From: Spongospora subterranea f. sp. subterranea
Taxonomy: Eukaryota
Assembly: GCA_049724395.1 (NCBI GenBank)
Contig: JAUGWO010000113.1
Location: 173,563-193,562 of the forward strand
Length of the DNA: 20,000 bases
Direction: 5' to 3'
The notes beneath the pieces were generated by a model. It was not told where the DNA came from and did not search any database. It saw only the letters and a list, made by a program, of their open reading frames with translations. This document shows positions 4,295-20,000 of this stretch, one piece after another (within the stretch, counting starts at the first letter, position 1; each line of letters starts with the position of its first letter). The translations under genes were made by a program, and so were the position numbers.

Positions 4295-5101
4295 TATATT
4301 ATCTTCGAATCCTTTTGTCATTGCATTGACAGTTGCTGGTGTCAGGGTCCCCTTCACCGGATTCCCAGCACTTTTTCAATATCAATTTGGTTTTACGGCA
4401 ATTCGAGCGATGGAAGAACGAAAAGAACGAGGGCGAGACATTTTTATCAAATCAGCTGATTGTATTGATGCGACAAAGGCATGGGGATGTTCCATAGAGG
4501 AAATTCTCCTCGTGTTTCAATGGTATCGGATTCTCAATGAGTCGGAAATAACAGGATACAATATCGGTCAGAATGCGGAAACAAATCAGAGAAGTCTGAT
4601 AATTGGGACGGATGTAGGGTAAAGGATGCAGAGTATATTGGACACACACAGTTCAGGGCAGTTTCCGACTCGAATGGCTTCCGACCAATCATATCAACAC
4701 TTCTCAACCAATACATCATTGTCTTGTTCCCCCGAATTGGACCATCCCCATAACCTCCTCTTGTGCCTTTTGTTAGGAATACAATGAGGCGAAACACGAC
4801 AATGATATATTGTCGAAAGGCGACGGGACTAGTGGCCAAGGGGCGATACCTGTCGGAAGAAAAATCTTCTCGGATGAATATTGTTTACCGGTCATCACCG
4901 TGCTTTGATGACTCCCTCTGACCAGTAATTCTGTATAAAAGATGATGACACCCCTGACATTACCTCTCTTTGCTCAAGAGGAGAAACCCTCTTAACAAAT
5001 TCCTTCTACCCTGTTGAACTAATGTAGGGATTCGTAATAGGTTTCGAGGAGACAGCCTCGTGGAGGTTGTGTTGAAGCGACGTGTAATGGCTCAATGGTG
5101 T

Positions 5102-5198: not shown

Positions 5199-5617
5199 CT
5201 TTGGTAATGGGGAGTGGCCTTAAAAATTTGTAGTCGAGTTTGTCAGAGGGTCGATTGGTGGCGACTGCAGATACCAACTAAAAACAACACATCGATAGAT
5301 GTATTATTAAGAACGTCCGATATGGCATGTACATGACTGATCGTAAAACATATGTAATCAGTAGATAGAGATATTGATAACTTCCATTATACACCAACAA
5401 TACAAAGGAATGTGACTCCCTCCTCTGCGGCATTTTCAAACCGAACCTGGTTCGATTTGAAACGAACCTGGGTTCGAAAACCGATCTGATGGATATGGAT
5501 CCCCCCGCTACAACACCAGGTGTATATATGGATGACTGTGTGCCAGTGCGGGCTCAACAAGGTTCAGGGTTCAAAAAAGTTCAAAATTGAATCCGCCCCG
5601 GATTACGGTATTTCGGT

Positions 5618-6580
5618 ATGTTGGAGTTGCTATTATACGCCACTCTCACGACCATAGCATGTTCGTGTCCAGACAATGAACTCAAATCTCCCCCGTTCTA
5701 TTCCAATCCCGTTTTCTCCCTCGCTCAAGTCTCTCATGACCAGGATTCCTCACAAACTAATCTACCTGTTCAATCGTCTCTCCCCAGTACCGTTGAACCT
5801 CAACCAGCGTGTGCTTCCTCCTTTGACCCTGACCAATTACCTCATGATGACATTTTTCACCAATTTATTGACTACTCACAGGTCGATGCTTTCCACCCGA
5901 CGTTGCAATCCAAAATAGCCATCCTCAAACATCGAATGGATGTGTCCTTCTGCCACTATGTCGTCAGAATCTGTGATGACTATCGCGATATTAGTTCAAA
6001 TACCCAAAGTCTTTATCAGGATTTGATCAAACGTTTTCGACATGATATTGCGGAGGCGGAGAAAGAATTGTGTCAAAATTGGTTCAATCTGGCTGTCCGC
6101 TTGCTGCGACAAATCTATGGTCGTCTGCCTCGGCGTGGTGTCGACGTTATCAAACGAGCACTCGAACAACGTTTTGGTCCAGATAATGGCAATGTGTTTT
6201 TTTTGGCATATCGTAAACGCTCTGGTAAAGCCTTGCAAAGTCTCGTGTGGAGACTGAATGAACCCAACTTCCACATATTTCATTTTTTGCATGCGTTTTT
6301 GACTCATTTGTCATCATTCCCCCTTCTTCTTGAATATATCAGATCCAACTTTTCTCCTGACCAGCAACCGAGTGCCTACGTCCTGGACAATACCGTCATG
6401 ACTCATGTTCGTGGATGTCAGAACACTGCATTCGCCCGGCTTTGGAATAAGAGACATGAACTCCTATCCGAAAACAACAAACGCTTGCACCAACTTCAAC
6501 TTGCTTTCACGAACTTCAAGCTCCCAGATTGTCCAAACAATAATCAAAGGTTCTCCATTGATAAACAGTCAAAGTATTGA
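5618..6580 (+). CDS. Hypothetical protein, probably secreted (effector-like); may be the 5' part of a longer disrupted gene
   Basis: Longest ORF (320 aa) with a true ATG. It has a hydrophobic N-terminus (MLELLLYATLTTIACSC), a Pro/Ser/Gln-rich linker and a helical-looking body. A TATATAT motif lies at ~5523. No family recognised. Confidence 0.6.
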   Translation: MLELLLYATLTTIACSCPDNELKSPPFYSNPVFSLAQVSHDQDSSQTNLPVQSSLPSTVEPQPACASSFDPDQLPHDDIFHQFIDYSQVDAFHPTLQSKIAILKHRMDVSFCHYVVRICDDYRDISSNTQSLYQDLIKRFRHDIAEAEKELCQNWFNLAVRLLRQIYGRLPRRGVDVIKRALEQRFGPDNGNVFFLAYRKRSGKALQSLVWRLNEPNFHIFHFLHAFLTHLSSFPLLLEYIRSNFSPDQQPSAYVLDNTVMTHVRGCQNTAFARLWNKRHELLSENNKRLHQLQLAFTNFKLPDCPNNNQRFSIDKQSKY

Positions 6581-10739: not shown

Positions 10740-11463
10740 GCTACGAATCCACCTGAGGAAGAGAGGCGCCGCCGTCGCCAACTCGGTCTTTGTCTGTATG
10801 GCGGCTATCAACACATGATAAGCTAATCGCCAACCATCTGTCTCACTAAACTCTACTCGTCAGCCTTACTCCAGGTTTATCATTACTGGGCGCGTAGGTC
10901 CTCATCATTCTTGTGATCCAGTAAAAATGATGGTGGATAGCGGGGCGGGCGCCAGCTTTGTTAGTTCATCCATTGCTTCTGCTTTCCAGTTAAGAACGAA
11001 CAGAGCTAAATAGAGCAATCCGGGTTTCTTGTTTTAACGATCGTTTGGGAGCGTATATCGGCAGCTGACGTCCGAATTGGCGATAGCTGCTTTTATTGGA
11101 AATTTTATATTCTGTCTCATTCACAGTTCGACGTTATTCTTGGTTATGATTGGTTAAAGAAGTTCAACCCACAGATAGACCGGAAAACTGGTAAGTTGAA
11201 TCAACTCAGGCTGGATCTTTAGTCATTCCGTTGCATCGATGTCCAGCCATGAAATTCCACTCCCGTACTGCCGGAACTCTACTGTGATTTCACATATGTA
11301 TTTTGAAAAAAAAACCTGATGAACTACTGCCACATCGTCCTTATGATTGCTCGATCCCGATTTCCATGTTGGCTCCTTTCACACAATTGGACCAATTTAC
11401 CGCCTATCGCAAAAGGAGATAGAAGCGCTGCGCGAACACCTCAATGAGAATTTTCAGAAAGGT
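10740..11463 (+). mobile_element. Ty3/gypsy (Tf1/sushi-chromovirus-like) LTR retrotransposon relic: gag Zn-knuckle, aspartic protease, RT N-terminus
   Basis: PEEERRRRRQLGLCLYGG..H (degenerate knuckle), MMVDSGAGASFV (~10928), FDVILGYDWLKKFNPQIDRKTG, PDELLPHRPYDCSI, GPIYRLSQKEIEALREHLNENFQKG. Several stops and frameshifts; truncated at ~11463. Confidence 0.9.
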
Positions 11464-11845
11464 TCTTGATTCTTTGTAGAATTATTCATAAGTTCACTAT
11501 ATAGATGTTCGATTCCGTGTTGGCTGGAGCCATATCGGCCATTACAGGTGCGTGGCGTTCATTGTTTCATATGTTTGTTATTATCACATCGATGATGATC
11601 GTTATTTCTGCAGTGGGTGCCGTCGGCAGCTGTGTCTGTTGGAACCGGTCGGCTGGGTCATCGCTTCTGCGCTGACGACGGTCCCTAATTCAGTTTTAAC
11701 AAACGCACACGCCGACTGCAGCGACTGCAGAAATAACGATCATATATGAACGCCACTCACCTGTAATGGCCGATATAATAGCTCAAGCCAACACGAAATC
11801 GAACCTCTATAGTGAACTTATGAGTAATTCTAGAAAGAATTAACA
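11464..11845. mobile_element. ~380-bp fold-back element / long inverted repeat
   Basis: 11466-11562 pairs with ~11746-11843, and 11595-11647 with ~11690-11743. There is a ~30-nt bulge in the left arm. No TSD found. Confidence 0.75.
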
Positions 11846-11852
11846 ACAATGA

Positions 11853-12187: not shown

Positions 12188-12944
12188 TAGCTTGGGTCCT
12201 GTCTGTCCCAGTTGGTGGCAGGCATGTCAGGGTGAGTGCTACCAACTTAACCCGAAAATAACACATGGTGTTGTACTGTATTCGAATTTCCCTAAAATCG
12301 AACATCCGGGCGTTCGACTCTATAACATCTGGGTGTTCGTTCTGCCAAAATCCAAATACAACACCACTTCCAAGGTGCTGTATTCGATTTAGAACACCTG
12401 GTTTTATTATCGTATCAGTCGGGGAAATTGACATAGCTGGATCGGGGAATTCGACATCGCTGGACTATATTTTCTTGCACGAGTTCAACATCCTGAGTAG
12501 CCGCAGGAGCAGTATACAAAACCGAAGACGTGGTCTCAGCGTTTACGACTTTGATATTCCAATTCTCCTTGATTGACATGGCATAATCTCCAACTCCTCT
12601 GCGGCAGTATCTTGCTCCAGTTCAGCATAATATGATTCACTGGTAATGTCTTGCAGCTCTGGAACCGATCTCATGAAATGCAAAAGCTCCGTTTTGTAGT
12701 CTTCCCAAGCAGACTCGTTGCTACCCACTTTACGTGCGATGCACAAATGTATAAGCTCTCCTTTTCCGAATCGGGTAAAAACCAGTTTGAAGGTTCGAAT
12801 GTTTCTTCAACCAGTACTGATTCGGTATCAATATAGGACGAGTACAGATCATTCCAGGAGTCAAGATCAAAGGAAGGCTCGAAGAGCGCTTTCAGTGGCG
12901 GATGCAGCAGGCTAAGATCAAAGACCTTTTAGGTACAAGACCAC

Positions 12945-13635
12945 AATCAAAAAAGCGTTTGTAATTTGTTCGACTGTTTTGGTTTTTGTCCATTCGACGT
13001 TCCAGTTGGAGACAGATATATAATTAGGGACTTTGGGGTTGCCAGTCCGTGTTTGAAGCTCTGGGTCTTCCAATGCTTGCCCAATTTATCATAGCAGGTC
13101 TGATATTAGGATTGAAAACTTCTATTGACAGCCACATCTAACGGTTGCAAGATGTTTGTCAAATTGGGAGGAATGATGACAGTGAAGATGTTGTACTTTC
13201 TAGAGTTTTTAACTCGGCCAGCTTGATATGCACACCATAAAAATCAATGATAAAAAGAATAGGCTCTCTCATGAACGAAGTCTCCATCCGGGAAACCAAT
13301 GCATCCTTGACAAATTGAAGTAACATTTCGTCATTCCACTTTCCCGTCTTATTTACTTCGACAAGCACGTCTTTTGTTAACAGACGGCTTGTTTTTGTGG
13401 TCAGAAAATAGCAGGTGCGATTTGAGTAGTTTGCCGTCGCCAGTAATGGCAAATGTCACAGTAAATCGTTTATGACTGGTCCCTCCTTTTCTCAGAAAAA
13501 CCTTAAAACGAGTCAGTACTGTAAATTACGAGTTATGTGAGTTCATCATTAACTGATCGTTGACGATGCCTCAGTCTTAAAGTATCAAGGTACTTGGTCC
13601 ATGTTAATAATGTTCTTGACTTTGATCGAGTGTGT
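12945..13635 (-). mobile_element. pogo/Tigger-type DDE_1 transposase pseudogene
   Basis: NIINMDQVP (~13590-13615), [73 protein letters not shown], with frameshifts and stops. Confidence 0.9.
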
Positions 13636-14403
13636 CTCAATTAGACGATGAACAGACTGAACGAATGAAAAAAAAGACAATGATCAAACAAAGAAAGAAG
13701 AACTGCTACAAAAAGTTGAAAGATAAGGATCAACGACAAATGCTCAAACAACGATGCCTCAACAAAACAAAAAAGACAACTGAAAATCACACAATGTTTT
13801 GCGCGCCTTAAGGTTAAAGCGAAACAAGTAAAGAATAACAGAAATTTCTGATTATAGCACAATGGAACGCATGTTCATTAAGCGAGGAGAAGGCAACCGA
13901 ACTGGCTTACTTTGCGAATCAACACCTAATAGATGTATTTAGTATTGCAGAGCAGAAACATCGACGTAATATTCAGGGATTTCCACAATACGAGTGTGAT
14001 GATCGATACACACAATCAGAAATATTTTGGCGAGAACATGTCAAAATAGAAAAACTATATCCTCCGGCAGTTCAATGCTTTGGAGAATTCGCTATGTACA
14101 ACACAAAAATAACTGAGACCCCGGATATTCTCAAAGGAACAAAAAATTTAAAAAAAATGTAGTACAGTACCTATTTGGAGGTCACTTTTTTTTTCAAAAA
14201 TTCAAACGCCGCGCCGCCCCAATCAAAGTTCAAGGACTTGGACTGTGTCAACGCAATATTTTAGACGCAATCATCTAAAAATAGCTTTTTAGCTTGGATT
14301 TACCAAGCCCTCATACGTGACTGGGCACGTGAACGTATTGGATAAGAACGCATAGTCACCGCTGCATGTGGTGATCCAATCCATGGCATGAACTCTTTGG
14401 TCA

Positions 14404-14810
14404 TCAACTTCGTTGGATGTTAAACTGGTGATACTTGTTCTCCGATATGAAGTGTGACGTATCGGTCTCTGAGCATGGCGTCAGCGTTGAGAGGCTTTCT
14501 GCGTCAGCGTTGGTACGGGCAGATGGTACTGATGGGGTTTCCTTCAGGTTTAGCGAGTGCAACACGATTCGCCAATCGTCAGCCCGGGCCCTGGGTCGCC
14601 AGATAGGAGATCCTAACACGGTGGCGTTCTGGCACAACGTAGAGGCAGTGTATGATGATGCGAGCAGCAGTTCGCTCGTGTTCTTCAGAAGGGATGCATC
14701 GCTCCCTGTGATGCCGAGCTTTGACCGACCCGCGTCTACAATCCTTCTTGCAGTAGCCTCTGGGATGCCGAAGTACACAAAATCCTGGGTTGGTGAGAAT
14801 CTCATGGCAT
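14404..14810 (-). pseudogene. Gene fragment of unknown function, possibly with a SAM-like N-terminal segment
   Basis: Open, GC-richer frame. DAMRFSPTQDFVYFGIPEATARRIVDA loosely resembles SAM-like 'GIP.G.A.RI' helices. The opposite strand is also open, so the strand is uncertain. Confidence 0.3.
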
Positions 14811-15538
14811 CCAACGCACATGCACTGTTAAGACTGCTACATAATGCAGGATGGCGGCGGCAAAAGACCAACAATTCGCCATGATTGTATACGATTTCAT
14901 GAAGGCATTCGATAGAGTGCAACGAACACTGCTGATCCAGAAAATGAGGGGAATGGGGATAGATCATATCTGATACTACTGATTGATGACTGGCTAACAA
15001 CCAGAGTATTTGAGGTGAATTGCAGAAACACCAATTCTAAATTACATAGACAGGAGAATGGTATTCCACAGGGATCCAGTATAAGTGTGTTGCTGTGGAT
15101 AATCTACATATATGACGCCCCTACAAACATTGTATTCAATGAATACTCACCCACAAACAAATTGACTCAGACGACCAAAACAGTGCAATACCTAGGAGCA
15201 ACGCTAAACGCCAATAACGAAAATAACCACTCAACTTTCACGATTCAACTGACAGAAGTGGCCAACGATATAAGGAAATGATGTAAACTGGTACGAGAAA
15301 TGAGAAAATACCGGATACCATACAGAACATATCAACAGTTATGTCGAGGATTTATAGGAAAGAAACTGAACTATTACCTACCTTGGTTGGCAGTAGAAAT
15401 CAGCAAGAGCATGAGTAGAACATTGCGACCCAATGTTTCAGACCAACACCAATCCCTATATTACATGCAATATCCGGATTCCTACTATTGAGAGATAAAA
15501 TCATTACTGAAACAACAATGACAGTAGTCGCTGCTCAG
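14807..15538 (+). mobile_element. Non-LTR (LINE) reverse transcriptase relic
   Basis: SNAHALLRLL, AMIVYDFMKAFDRVQRTLLIQKM, ENGIPQGSSISVLLWIIYIYD, TVQYLGATL. The YADD segment is deleted and there are frameshifts. Interrupted at 15538 by the TRIM array. Confidence 0.9.
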
Positions 15539-17980
15539 TGTTAGGAACTGCGCTCGAGATACACAGTTACCAACTGACCCAAAAGGTACTATGATGGCAC
15601 AAGGCCATCATTCTCGGGTCCTTATATGCCTAAGACTTTTTCATCATGACATTATCCCCATGTTTAGGAGCGACCCCCATGACCTTCCAGCCCCCGTGGA
15701 TTATCCTCTGACTGGTGAGCATAGAAACGAGATAACACAGTTGAGAGAGAAGGAAGAAGACGAAACAATCCAGCCAGGCGGGGAAGTCTGACCACGAAAG
15801 GTATATAAGGCAACCCCCATTGCCGTTACATGTAAGCCGCGAGTGACCCCAAAATGCTGTGAACACTAAGGAAATCGAACTCACGACCTTGATAGCCATC
15901 ATACTGTTAGGAACTGCACCCGAGATACACAGTTACCAACTGACCCAAAAGGTACTATGATGGCACAAGGCCATCATTCTCGGGTCCTTATATGCCTAAG
16001 ACTTTTTCATCATGACATTATCCCCCTGTTTAGGAGCGACCCCCATGACCTTCCAGCCCCCGTGGATTATCCTCTGACTGGTGAGCATAGAAACGAGATA
16101 ACACAGTTGAGAGAGAAGGAAGAAGACGAAACAATCCAGCCAGGCGGGGAAGTCTGACCACGAAAGGTATATAAGGCAACCCCCATTGCCGTTACATGTA
16201 AGCCGCGAGTGACCCCAAAATGCTGTGAACACTAAGGAAATCGAACTCACGACCTTGATAGCCATCATACTGTTAGGAACTGCACCCGAGATACACAGTT
16301 ACCAACTGACCCAAAAGGTACTATGATGGCACAAGGCCATCATTCTCGGGTCCTTATATGCCTAAGACTTTTTCATCATGACATTATCCCCCTGTTTAGG
16401 AGCGACCCCCATGACCTTCCAGCCCTTAGCTTGGTTCTGGTCTGTCCCGGTTGGTGGCAGGTTAGGACCAGGTCAGTGTGAGACTTGAGTTCGAAAACCC
16501 CGTGGGCAGGGATTTTGGGGAACACCCTAAGGTTGGCCAGCTAATACGGAAGTAGAGCGAAGGTTGAGCATGGCAGGAACGAACCTCTGGAAAAATACCG
16601 ACAGCTGATTTGTAATGATGCGACTTGGGTTCAAGGCATTGTGGTGTTCCGTAAGGGAATTTTCCCCCGTGTCCTAATGGTAAGGGGGTTTTTAGTGAGT
16701 CAGGTCATGGGATCAACCTCACACTACTACAATGTCGGTCAGACTGCAGAACATTCAGCGAAGGTATCTATTGCAAGTGCGAGCTTGCTACTGGGAGGAG
16801 CTTTAGAGGCGAGAGCCGAAAAAGTGAATCTTGGCCCGATAGCCAAGGGACCGGCAAACCTGCATGAAAAATGCGAACTCAATCACAAAAAAAAAAAAAA
16901 AAAAAAACCTTCCAGCCCCCGTGGATTATCCTCTGACTGGTGAGCATAGAAACGAGATAACACAGTTGAGAGAGAAGGAAGAAGACGAAACAATCCAGCC
17001 AGGCGGGGAAGTCTGACCACGAAAGGTATATAAGGCAACCCCCATTGCCGTTACATGTAAGCCGCGAGTGACCCCAAAATGCTGTGAACACTAAGGAAAT
17101 CGAACTCACGACCTTGATAGCCATCATACTGTTAGGAACTGCACCCGAGAATACACAGTTACCAACTGACCCAAAAGGTACTATGATGGCACAAGGCCAT
17201 CATTCTCGGGTCCTTATATGCCTAAGACTTTTTCATCATGACATTATCCCCCTGTTTAGGAGCGACCCCCATGACCTTCCAGCCCCCGTGGATTATCCTC
17301 TGACTGGTGAGCATAGAAACGAGATAACACAGTTGAGAGAGAAGGAAGAAGACGAAACAATCCAGCCAGGCGGGGAAGTCTGACCACGAAAGGTATATAA
17401 GGCAACCCCCATTGCCGTTACATGTAAGCCGCGAGTGACCCCAAAATGTTGTGAACACTAAGGAAATCGAACTCACGACCTTGATAGCCATCATACTGTT
17501 AGGAACTGCACCCGAGATACACAGTTACCAACTGACCCAAAAGGTACTATGATGGCACAAGGCCATCATTCTCGGGTCCTTATATGCCTAAGACTTTTTC
17601 ATCATGACATTATCCCCCTGTTTAGGAGCGACCCCCATGACCTTCCAGCCCCCGTGGATTATCCTCTGACTGGTGAGCATAGAAACGAGATAACACAGTT
17701 AGCATGAGAGAGAAGGAAGAAGACGAAACAATCCAGCCAGGCGGGGAAGTCTGACCACGAAAGGTATATAAGGCAACCCCCATTGCCGTTACATGTAAGC
17801 CGCGAGTGACCCCAAAATGCTGTGAACACTAAGGAAATCGAACTCACGACCTTGATAGCCATCATACTGTTAGGAACTGCACCCGAGATACACAGTTACC
17901 AACTGACCCAAAAGGTACTATGATGGCACAAGGCCATCATTCTCGGGTCCTTATATACCTAAGACTTTTGGATCATGACA
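15539..17980 (-). mobile_element. Tandem array of a TRIM (miniature LTR retrotransposon): 6 LTRs and 5 internal regions, 366-bp period
   Basis: LTRs at 15539-15651, 15905-16017, 16271-16383, 17130-17243, 17497-17609 and 17868-17980; on the minus strand each reads TGTCATGA...CCTAACA. A PPT AAACAGGGGGATAA abuts the downstream LTRs (one substitution in the first unit). The array begins and ends exactly on LTR termini. The internal region is 253 bp with no retroelement coding motifs. Confidence 0.9.
16426..16907 (+). mobile_element. SINE-like retroposed insertion with poly(A) tail and 12-bp TSD
   Basis: ACCTTCCAGCCC is duplicated at 16414-16425 and 16907-16918, with an A21 tail at 16887-16907. 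A-box-like TAGCTTGGTTCTGG and B-box-like GAGTTCGAAAA lie near the 5' end, and a CTTGGC..GCCAAG stem-loop near the 3' end. Neighbouring array units show the empty site. Confidence 0.9.
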
Positions 17981-18040
17981 ATTAACATATGCTTCTCTTA
18001 GATTAGTCATATCCATTGTCATCAATCGCACGATGAACAG
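17981..18040 (+). mobile_element. Displaced continuation of the copia RT fragment
   Basis: Joining 18773 to 17986 through the ATTAA duplication restores DTYSSVLTYASLRLVISIVINRTM, matching the copia RT pattern TYSPV....S.R.LL. Confidence 0.75.
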
Positions 18041-18084
18041 GCGGGTCGGACGAGATGGGTTAAATATGCTAACACATCGTATTA

Positions 18085-18225
18085 TGAACCTCGTGAACCA
18101 CCTAACCAATGTGGAGTACCCAAGAACGTACCACGAGGCAATGCAGATGCCTGACAGTATGCACTGGCATAAAGCCGCACTTCAAGAGATGAAATCATTG
18201 GAAGAAAACAACACATGGTCACTGG
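18085..18225 (+). repeat. 141-bp direct duplicate of copia segment 18477-18617
   Basis: Identical sequence encoding NLVNHLTNVEYPRTYHEAM...EENNTWSL. Confidence 0.95.
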
Positions 18226-18259
18226 GCTATAAGTCTACATAGCTACTGCTCATTTGAGA

Positions 18260-18313
18260 CACAAGGCCATCATTCTCGGGTCCTTATATACCTAAGACTT
18301 TTTCATCATGACA
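18260..18313 (-). mobile_element. Partial TRIM LTR (retains the TGTCATGA terminus), flanked by CTCAG
   Basis: CACAAGGCCATC...TCATCATGACA followed by CTCAG (18314-18318), the same pentamer that precedes the array (15534-15538). Confidence 0.9.
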
Positions 18314-18388
18314 CTCAGGTCAATTTGGGCAGAGAATACACGAAATGGACTGGGAAAGGAGATGGATGGACACCACTTGGAGAAGTAA

Positions 18389-18773
18389 GATGTTTTATTC
18401 GAGGATAAATTCCCGAACCAGGAGCGACCGAGCGACCATGACCCTATTGAAATAATCGATGATCATGGATTCGAACTGAACCTCGTGAACCACCTAACCA
18501 ATGTGGAGTACCCAAGAACGTACCACGAGGCAATGCAGATGCCTGACAGTATGCACTGGCATAAAGCCGCACTTCAAGAGATGAAATCATTGGAAGAAAA
18601 CAACACATGGTCACTGGTAACTTTACCAGCCAATAACAACGTGATTAAAGGACGATGGGTCTTTACTAAGAAGCAATCCGATGGGAAAGCTAAGTACAAA
18701 GCACGATTCGTCGCTAAAGGCTATTCCCAAATTTATGGCATCGATTACCACGACACGTATTCCTCTGTATTAA
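18389..18773 (+). mobile_element. Ty1/copia pol fragment (integrase-RT linker and RT N-terminus)
   Basis: DVLFEDKFP...YPRTYHEAM..WHKAALQEMKSLEENNTWSLV..VIKGRWVFTKK..KYKARFVAKGYSQIYGIDYHDTYSSV, cut by a TRIM at 18774. Confidence 0.95.
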
Positions 18774-19220
18774 TGTTAGGAACTGCGCCCGAGATACACA
18801 GTACCAGTTACCAAACTGACCCAAAAGGTACTATGATGGCACAAGGCCATCATTCTCGGGTTTTTATATACCTAAGACTTTTGGATCATGACAGTATCCC
18901 CCTGTTTAGGAGCGACCCCCATGACCTTCCAGCCCCCGTGCGACTTCCTAGATTATCCTCTGACTGGTGAGCATAGAAACGAGATAACACAGTTGAGAGA
19001 GAAGGAAGAAGACGAAACAATCCAGTCAGGCGGGGAAGTCTGACCACGAAAGGTATATAAGGCAACCCCCATTGCCGTTACATGTAAGCCGCGAGTGACC
19101 CCAAAATGCTGTGAACACTAAGGAAATCGAACTCACGACCTTGGTAGCCATCATACTGTTAGGAACTGCGCCCGAGATACACAGTTACCAACTGACCCAA
19201 AAGGTACTATGATGGCACAA
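18774..19220 (-). mobile_element. Diverged TRIM copy (LTR 18774-18893, internal region, truncated LTR 19157-19220)
   Basis: Same unit with small insertions and PPT AAACAGGGGGATAC. The left flank ATTAA (18769-18773) equals the flank at 17981-17985. Confidence 0.9.
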
Positions 19221-19396
19221 TATTAGACGATAGTGGTAGTGGTAGTGGTAGTGGTCGATGGTAACGTTAATGAGTACTATAGAAGAGTGACGTTTATTGT
19301 CATTGATGATGTGTTTAATACACATAGTTGAGTCATGCTTATCAATGACTCAACATGAATCATGCGGAAGATGAAAATATCGCCTTACGGTTAATA
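19221..19396 (-). repeat. Putative 3' LTR of the copia element with TATTA...TAATA termini
   Basis: It follows the RNase H region and a purine-rich AATAGCGAAGGTGCG. It has inverted ends TATTA/TAATA, a minus-strand AATAAA (~19293-19298), (AGTGGT)4 at ~19232-19255 and a GTTGAGTCAT..ATGACTCAAC hairpin. The partner LTR is not in the window. Confidence 0.55.
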
Positions 19397-20000
19397 CGCA
19401 CCTTCGCTATTGAATCTGGAGCTAGTTCGGTGTTTAAAATCTTGTGTCGGTGGGTTTCGAACTTCTGCTCGCTCAATGGTTTTGTAAAAAGGTCCGCAAT
19501 CATTGTTTCAGTTGGGCAGTATACGACTTTGATCCGGCCTTCCTTGATCTTTTCCCGGATAAAATGGTACTTGATATCCACATGTTTGGTTCTTGACTTA
19601 TTGCAGTCGTTTGTTTGAAGAAAAATCGCTCCCTGGTTGTCCTGATGGAGGATGGACCTCTTGTTTGTGATGATACGTAGTTCCGCTAATAGGTCTTGCA
19701 ACCAGATCGCTTCCTTTGTGGCGTCACACGCGGCCATATATTCGGCCTCTGTGGTAGATAAGGTTACCGCTTTCTGCTTTGTACTTTTCCATGAAATAGT
19801 ATTGTTGCCTATTTTGTAAATCCATCCAGTCGTCGATTTGCGGTCGTTTTTGTCACCGGCAAAATCGCTGTCGGCGTATCCTTGGATAGTTGATGAACCT
19901 TTTGTAAAAGTGAAGCCCGAGTTCTTGTGTAGTGTTTAAATACTTGATAATTTTCTGGATTGCTCTCCACAGATTTGGTGATGGTGATGTAACATAGCGG
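19360..20000 (-). mobile_element. Ty1/copia pol C-terminus (RT end and RNase H), frameshifted, runs off the window
   Basis: LWRAIQKIIKYL, a frameshift near 19917, then GYADSDFAGDKNDRKSTTG, ISWKSTKQKAVTLSTTEAEYMA, HQDNQGAI, RTKHVDIKYHFIRE and YCPTETMIADLFTKPL. Confidence 0.97.

Follow-up and report, generated by a model that had tools for sequence, protein, structure and literature searches.

Self-priming of reverse transcription is proven for Tf1 of Schizosaccharomyces pombe and predicted for its autonomous relatives. Tf1/Tf2 and the Tf1/sushi chromoviruses (Tj1, Tosmo1-3, Tcry1 and the Tcn1 clade) carry, directly after the LTR, a site complementary to the predicted 5' end of their RNA; a U5 stem lies beside this site and the elements generate 5-bp target duplications. 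The primer duplex of Tf1 comprises 11 bp (PMC7175516), and the so-called pretzel structure is described as requiring three duplexes, of which the U5 stem is one of two side duplexes (PMC10085805). Self-priming is also predicted for the TAR-lineage copia elements Houba and Osr-1, which are autonomous plant elements (PMC6317226). Fungal GalEa copia elements have no tRNA site and carry a 9-bp motif, the Conserved Hairpin Site, directly after the LTR; according to PMC5445492 this motif has its partner further down in the leader, and the LTR yielded none.

TRIMs, including those in tandem arrays, have been described from plants (Cassandra, Zma-SMART), bivalves and cestodes. They measure less than 1 kb, have repeats of 100–250 bp and a non-coding interior, and carry a polypurine tract (PMC6934838, PMC4717578). 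The classical definition includes a site complementary to a tRNA 3' end. Biv-TRIM lacks such a site, and no mechanism was proposed for it. The Tf1-type mechanism itself is already known; in the literature searched, mostly outside subscription papers, we found no report of self-priming in TRIMs or other non-autonomous LTR elements.

Here we describe a TRIM from Spongospora subterranea f. sp. subterranea, located in a stretch of 20,000 nucleotides (the window), which likely primes reverse transcription with the 5' end of its own RNA, as Tf1 does; we put the probability at about 0.7. The element resembles the Tf1/sushi group in the site after the LTR, the U5 stem and the 5-bp duplications, and its LTR starts with TGTCA like those of Tosmo1-3, Tcry1 and Tj1. 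It differs from this group in the apparent lack of gag-pol, an LTR of only 113 bp, a duplex of 9 instead of 11 nt with a 1-nt gap, a weak third duplex, an additional copy of the site within U3 and its tandem arrangement. Size, repeat length, an apparently non-coding interior, polypurine tract and tandem array are those of other TRIMs, whereas the classical TGG is absent from offsets 0–5 after the LTR. A 5S part was not found in an Rfam search. In contrast to TAR-lineage elements its LTR start does not fit the copia motifs (PMC3601003, Table 3), and unlike in GalEa the partner of the site lies in the LTR.

Structure of the tandem array

The TRIM unit measures 479 bp (113+253+113), a size below 1 kb with two terminal direct repeats within 100–250 bp. 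In the array the repeat period is 366 bp, corresponding to one 113-bp LTR and one 253-bp interior on the minus strand. The LTR reads TGTCATG...CCTAACA and thus has TG…CA termini. Since the interior starts with GTATGATGGC and ends with AAACAGGGGGATAA against the next LTR, the orientation on the minus strand is fixed. Six LTRs and five interiors are located at 15539–17980, and more pieces are found at 18260–18313 and 18774–19219. The features are the following:

15534–15538, no strand: 5-bp target duplication CTCAG, partner at 18314–18318
15539–15651, minus: 3' LTR closing the array
15652–15904, minus: internal region, 253 bp, without recognised coding remnant
15895–15904, minus: putative primer-binding site, G + TATGATGGC
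15905–16017, minus: 113-bp 5' LTR of the studied unit, doubling as the 3' LTR of the next array unit
15906–15940, minus: predicted U5 stem-loop adjoining the primer site, paired over 5+6 bp, or over 5+8 bp with the variant 15918 A>G
15942–15953, minus: U5 segment that may pair with the U3 outer arm (through 15950–15942) or, weakly, with the leader (third duplex)
15956–15964, minus: putative self-primer GCCATCATA, beginning at 15964, the transcription start expected from TATA spacing
15970–15986, minus: U3 arm, consisting of the primer-site core copy ATGATGGC (15977–15970) and the outer-stem arm (15986–15978), from the predicted fold of 15940–16017
15988–15994, minus: TATA-like box with putative promoter role, CATATAA in the unit studied and TATATAA in three of the eight LTR copies holding the box
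16018–16031, minus: polypurine tract AAACAGGGGGATAA adjoining the LTR; copy at 15652–15665 with one G>T
16018–17980, minus: remainder of the tandem array; one interior interrupted at 16426–16910
17981–17985, no strand: 5-bp target duplication ATTAA, partner at 18769–18773, splitting the copia RT reading
18260–18313, minus: partial LTR, U3 part, broken at the hairpin loop
18774–19219, minus: variant copy with R-U5, primer site, longer interior and full 3' LTR, sharing several variants with the deep form of public runs

Full units are near-identical (95.7–100%). At the four outer junctions two pairs of 5-bp duplicates are seen, CTCAG and ATTAA. The ATTAA insertion interrupts a copia RT reading and the RVT_2 match stops at the junction; both CTCAG junctions were found again in the public runs X1 and X2. 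The two pairs are interleaved, and the region must therefore be rearranged or misassembled. Coding capacity of the interior was judged by length, 253 bp being too short for gag-pol domains; frames of 80–106 aa over the array were left out of the Pfam scans. Judged by its sequence, the array is a real TRIM, integrase-mobilised and recently mobile.

Some further observations concern the array itself. Scrambling is seen at 17981–19220, where 141 bp occur twice, at 18085 and at 18477, again by rearrangement or misassembly. The 485-bp insert at 16426–16910 has a poly(A) tail and a duplication of about 11 bp on its flanks; its first 35 bp recur at 12188–12222, a weak match is located at 4453–4525, and it has the appearance of a SINE or a retroposed RNA. 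Each interior copy contains TATATAA on the antisense strand (15797–15808, plus strand), possibly an antisense promoter aimed at the primer site; 12 nt match the TATA region in the LTRs of two copies exactly (E 0.87, alone not significant). A 10-nt palindrome, TTACATGTAA, is located in the interior at 15826–15835 and might act as an RNA dimer signal.

The primer site and its complement in the LTR

Directly 3' of the LTR end CCTAACA the minus strand reads GTATGATGGC (15904–15895). The initial annotation had proposed that no TGG-type primer-binding site follows the LTR and that the complement of the site lies inside the LTR, and both points were borne out: TATGATGGC (15903–15895) is the exact complement of GCCATCATA (15964–15956). 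The match has a length of exactly 9 nt, and a single unpaired G separates the duplex from the CA of the LTR. The first TGG occurs at offset 6 from the LTR, outside offsets 0–5, at which classical sites for tRNA 3' ends start. Placement of the LTR segment about 28 nt downstream of the TATAA box was correct as well, GCCATCATA beginning 28 nt after its first T (15992). The following chance figures all apply to a pattern chosen after being seen. When the LTR was shuffled 20,000 times with dinucleotides preserved, 40 shuffles gave a perfect match of at least 9 nt located 0–3 nt after the LTR, and in 6 of these it also lay 22–38 nt downstream of the TATA position; among 26,120 control positions in the window, 78 gave such a match and 8 gave it at the TATA-relative distance too. 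According to PMC6317226, REXdb accepts tRNA primer sites at offset 0–5 and needs a complement of at least 10 nt to predict self-priming; with a TGG at offset 6 and a match of 9 nt the element therefore misses each of the two rules by one base.

The site is present at all six LTR/internal junctions in the window, and the 9-mer in all eight LTR copies long enough to contain it. The earlier statement that the arrangement is kept in all copies thus holds as a count; the copies are near-identical and do not represent independent conservation. Two-sided compensatory changes in primer and site were not seen among the copies and variants compared.

We considered two other primers. A whole tRNA might prime at TGGCTATCAAGG, 6 nt after the LTR, which would then be a decayed initiator-Met-like site. 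A TGG is indeed present there, and the letters following it presumably bear a loose resemblance to plant initiator-Met sites. However, the offset of 6 lies beyond the range described as usual, the six extra bases would lie beyond the CA end, and downstream of TGGC the copies differ from each other (15892) and a relative has other sequence. This relative (record 10; X15, single contig, depth 3.4) aligns over 15895–15946 and diverges immediately past the 9-nt site, which is 4 nt inside the putative tRNA site; its six mismatches are unplaced, so that the site itself may differ. As far as its sequence can be read, this divergence argues against a tRNA site beginning at TGG. We regard priming by a whole tRNA as very improbable.

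Alternatively, the primer at GTATGATGGC could be half a tRNA or another small RNA of the cell, half tRNA-Met and half tRNA-Ile being used in this way by certain copia elements. The UCAUA in the complement of the site presumably resembles the Met anticodon loop, a likeness of about 5 nt, and copia remnants surround the array. Half-tRNA priming is known in copia lineages and, according to PMC6317226, was found in copia alone, while the LTR ends here fit Sushi. It would also turn the perfect internal complement into a coincidence, and such a primer seems improbable to us. A Pol III reading of box A/B-like words after the site was rejected by eye, the spacing being about 5 nt.

Predicted folding of the 5' RNA end

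We modelled the RNA expected from self-priming. The segment from 15964 to the site is predicted to fold as a duplex round the U5 stem (z −2.65; 1 of 200 shuffles as good). The primer/site duplex, with a predicted energy of −12.2 kcal/mol, reached a probability of at least 0.99 in the full-monomer model starting at 15964 with an R of 7–34 nt, and of 0.6 with an R of 37 nt. On the LTR side of the site a U5 stem of 11–13 bp is predicted, equalled in 120 of 2,000 shuffles for the studied copy and in 6 of 2,000 for the variant. The third duplex, between U5 and leader, is weak at −4.8 and −7.0 kcal/mol, respectively, and duplexes as good were formed by 80 and 17 of 219 internal 12-mers; as modelled, it is no better than chance in the studied copy and marginal in the variant.

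Two changes, 15918 A>G and 15892 A>G, characterise the dominant form in X1, X2 and X15 and are present likewise at 19147–19216, in another copy. Each creates a G-C pair where G-U was possible, in one side stem apiece. This one-sided strengthening fits the structure and is not covariation. No change in primer or site is listed for the deep form in the three runs.

The U3 hairpin

A hairpin competing for the primer, formed by a second copy of the site just upstream of the predicted start, had been proposed earlier and was confirmed: ATGATGGC-CTTGT-GCCATCAT (15977–15957) pairs U3 arm and primer over 8 perfect bp, and perfect 8-bp hairpins with a loop of 3–12 nt occurred at 8 of 26,324 control positions. 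It extends to a 17-bp stem with a 6-nt bulge (15986–15942; z −3.44, 0 of 200 shuffles), the most significant fold observed here. A sigma-70 promoter scan, of no relevance to eukaryotic DNA, recovered nothing but this hairpin.

The prominence of this fold could indicate that the three motif copies serve another role, such as RNA 3'-end formation, packaging or DNA binding, or that they arose by local duplication, with some other primer in use. In addition, site and U3 arm agree as direct repeats at 9 of 10 positions, and a relative seen in two contigs (records 4 and 11) keeps 15942–16005, the block of TATA and hairpin, without the rest of U5. Such a role would leave the element without a primer, and it does not account for a complement at TATA+28 or for a match 1 nt from the LTR end, which makes this explanation unlikely in our view.

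If the element is self-priming, the hairpin would decide which RNAs can prime. In the models, which give equilibrium predictions only, the hairpin wins in all seven RNA starts at 16005 or further upstream (0.66–1.0), and starts at 15995–15980 (16–31 nt upstream) are split, with the primer/site duplex at 0.32–0.97. At the 3' end of the monomer the hairpin has a probability of about 1.0 and prevents the R copy from pairing with the site; when the modelled RNA ends before R, the U3 arm captures the 5' primer (0.96–0.98). Masking of the primer in 3'-LTR and long read-through copies, as suggested in the initial annotation, is therefore seen in the folding models. The regulated switch suggested along with it did not find the same support, the modelled hairpin being likely a constitutive lock. 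The combined reading of a minimal self-priming retroelement with a built-in lock, in which the U3 site copy pairs with the primer everywhere but at a correctly started 5' end, is tentative and we would not yet favor it. If true, only RNAs started at an LTR promoter could prime in a tandem array, with 3' ends and read-through RNAs silenced, and the self-priming unit of about 70 nt would include a control part that has no counterpart in Tf1 in the literature consulted. The U3 hairpin also suggests, in a form open to testing, how an RNA carrying the primer twice might select the right copy.

Two partial LTRs, at 18260–18264 and 19215–19219, break at the hairpin loop beside the predicted start and have 5 nt in common (CACAA).

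Public sequencing runs and relatives

Parts of the stretch are contained in 20 of 24 listed public runs, originating from nine studies with four coded organism labels and rhizosphere metatranscriptomes. The analysis covers four of the 24 runs (X1, X2, X15 and X24), and rows with a small share were not used as habitat evidence. X1 and X2 have common depths, look like one data set and were counted once; that they represent RNA is a guess. X24, a raw-read run, gave 0 reads and hence no test.

Contig depth in X2 is 524–619 in the interior, 257 at 15910–15950 (inferred from bin residuals), 80 at 15921–16006, 100 at 15977–16017 and 215 at 15989–16046, compared to 6–14 in flanking contigs. Depth accordingly drops about 7-fold inside the LTR, with the minimum within 15921–16006. 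DNA copies would give an LTR depth at least equal to that of the interior; the pattern therefore suggests a monomer RNA with both ends inside the LTR, bearing in mind that contig depth cannot place a start and that the 17-bp hairpin alone could lower depth.

In X15, an oligo-dT RNA library, one closed-cycle contig with a flat depth of 220 was found. Together with the 366-bp tandem units this might point to spread as a retrozyme-like circular RNA or satellite, without priming of the LTR type. Yet cyclic contigs arise from tandem copies alone, and Rfam gave no match at E up to 5 in 15400–16500. The CTGANGA core of a hammerhead occurs on neither strand, and TG..CA ends, polypurine tract and 5-bp duplications indicate an integrase. 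We consider this mode of spread extremely improbable.

Low-depth contigs represent three kinds of relative, aligning over 15895–15946, over 15942–16005 and on the polypurine side up to 16064. Relatives with one element end each in common were seen just as 30-letter loose ends. In a metagenome scan the 17-nt LTR/site junction matched 31 loci, none extending beyond 23 nt and all attributable to chance; the hairpin pattern gave 0 matches each in the viral and prokaryote collections.

A helper element and the proposed course of priming

The family represented at 10740–11463 had been named as the source of Gag and Pol. This claim was not sustained: the fragment represents a Ty3/gypsy protease region in broken form (RVP_2, E 1.7e-6) and shows no significant DNA similarity to the TRIM unit. 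Its seven representative relatives, two of them named from Tanacetum, support only a gypsy-type protease; a word search matched 0 of 24 candidates and a PDB search returned nothing meaningful. Its zinc-knuckle and pre-RT motifs presumably resemble those of fungal chromoviruses, and a Tf1/sushi rank of the fragment, which depends on such motifs, is tentative. An MITE-like element with long nested inverted repeats (11462–11847) terminates the fragment. An autonomous partner with the same LTR, primer site and polypurine tract was not found in the window. By eye, the LTR ends TGTCATG and CCTAACA match the Sushi integrase motifs TGTYANR and CNTNACA, which are short and degenerate, and the LTR start does not match the copia TGTT motifs (PMC3601003, Table 3).

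The initial proposal of Tf1-style self-priming by a protein-free TRIM is favored by the lack of a canonical tRNA site, the Tf1-like geometry, the U5 stem and the depth pattern in X2. A match of 9 nt, below the 10 of REXdb and the 11 of Tf1, and the weak third duplex count against it. The anatomy, the complementarity, the target duplications and the high depth in public runs are direct observations; the course of priming given here is inferred in all its steps. Transcription by RNA polymerase II would begin close to or at 15964, some 28 nt downstream of the TATA box, and the first nine bases of the RNA would fold onto the site just past the LTR, the loop enclosing the U5 stem. An autonomous element, probably a chromovirus of the Tf1/sushi type, would package the RNA, and its RNase H would free the primer as in Tf1; strong-stop cDNA would then be expected to carry the RNA primer GCCAUCAUA at its 5' end. 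The plus strand would be primed at the polypurine tract and an integrase would make the 5-bp duplications. At the 3' end of the RNA the U3 site copy may fold onto the R primer copy, so that neither competes with the 5' duplex, and the same hairpin would hide the primer in long read-through RNA.

Self-priming retained in a TRIM would mean that the signal acts in trans and can be reduced to some 70 nt, a compact substrate for asking what RNase H must see. TRIM searches starting from tRNA-derived sites (e.g. PMC13570524) would miss such elements.

Other sequences in the window

An open frame of 329 aa (5591–6580, plus strand) had no Pfam, homolog or Atlas match, and 83 further frames of the window gave only protease matches and weak noise. 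ARAGORN found no tRNAs in the window. A DDE-transposase-like piece without Pfam match was recognised by eye at 13162–13455 on the minus strand, followed by a decayed non-LTR-like RT at 13839–15490 on the plus strand (RVT_1, E 4.6e-4, below the cut-off). Copia RT/RNase H pieces are located on both strands at 18389–20000, with RNase H relatives reaching 63% identity. At the other end of the window, 18.5 copies of a 67-bp unit, 99% alike, occupy 901–2142 beside nested inverted repeats at 422–887.
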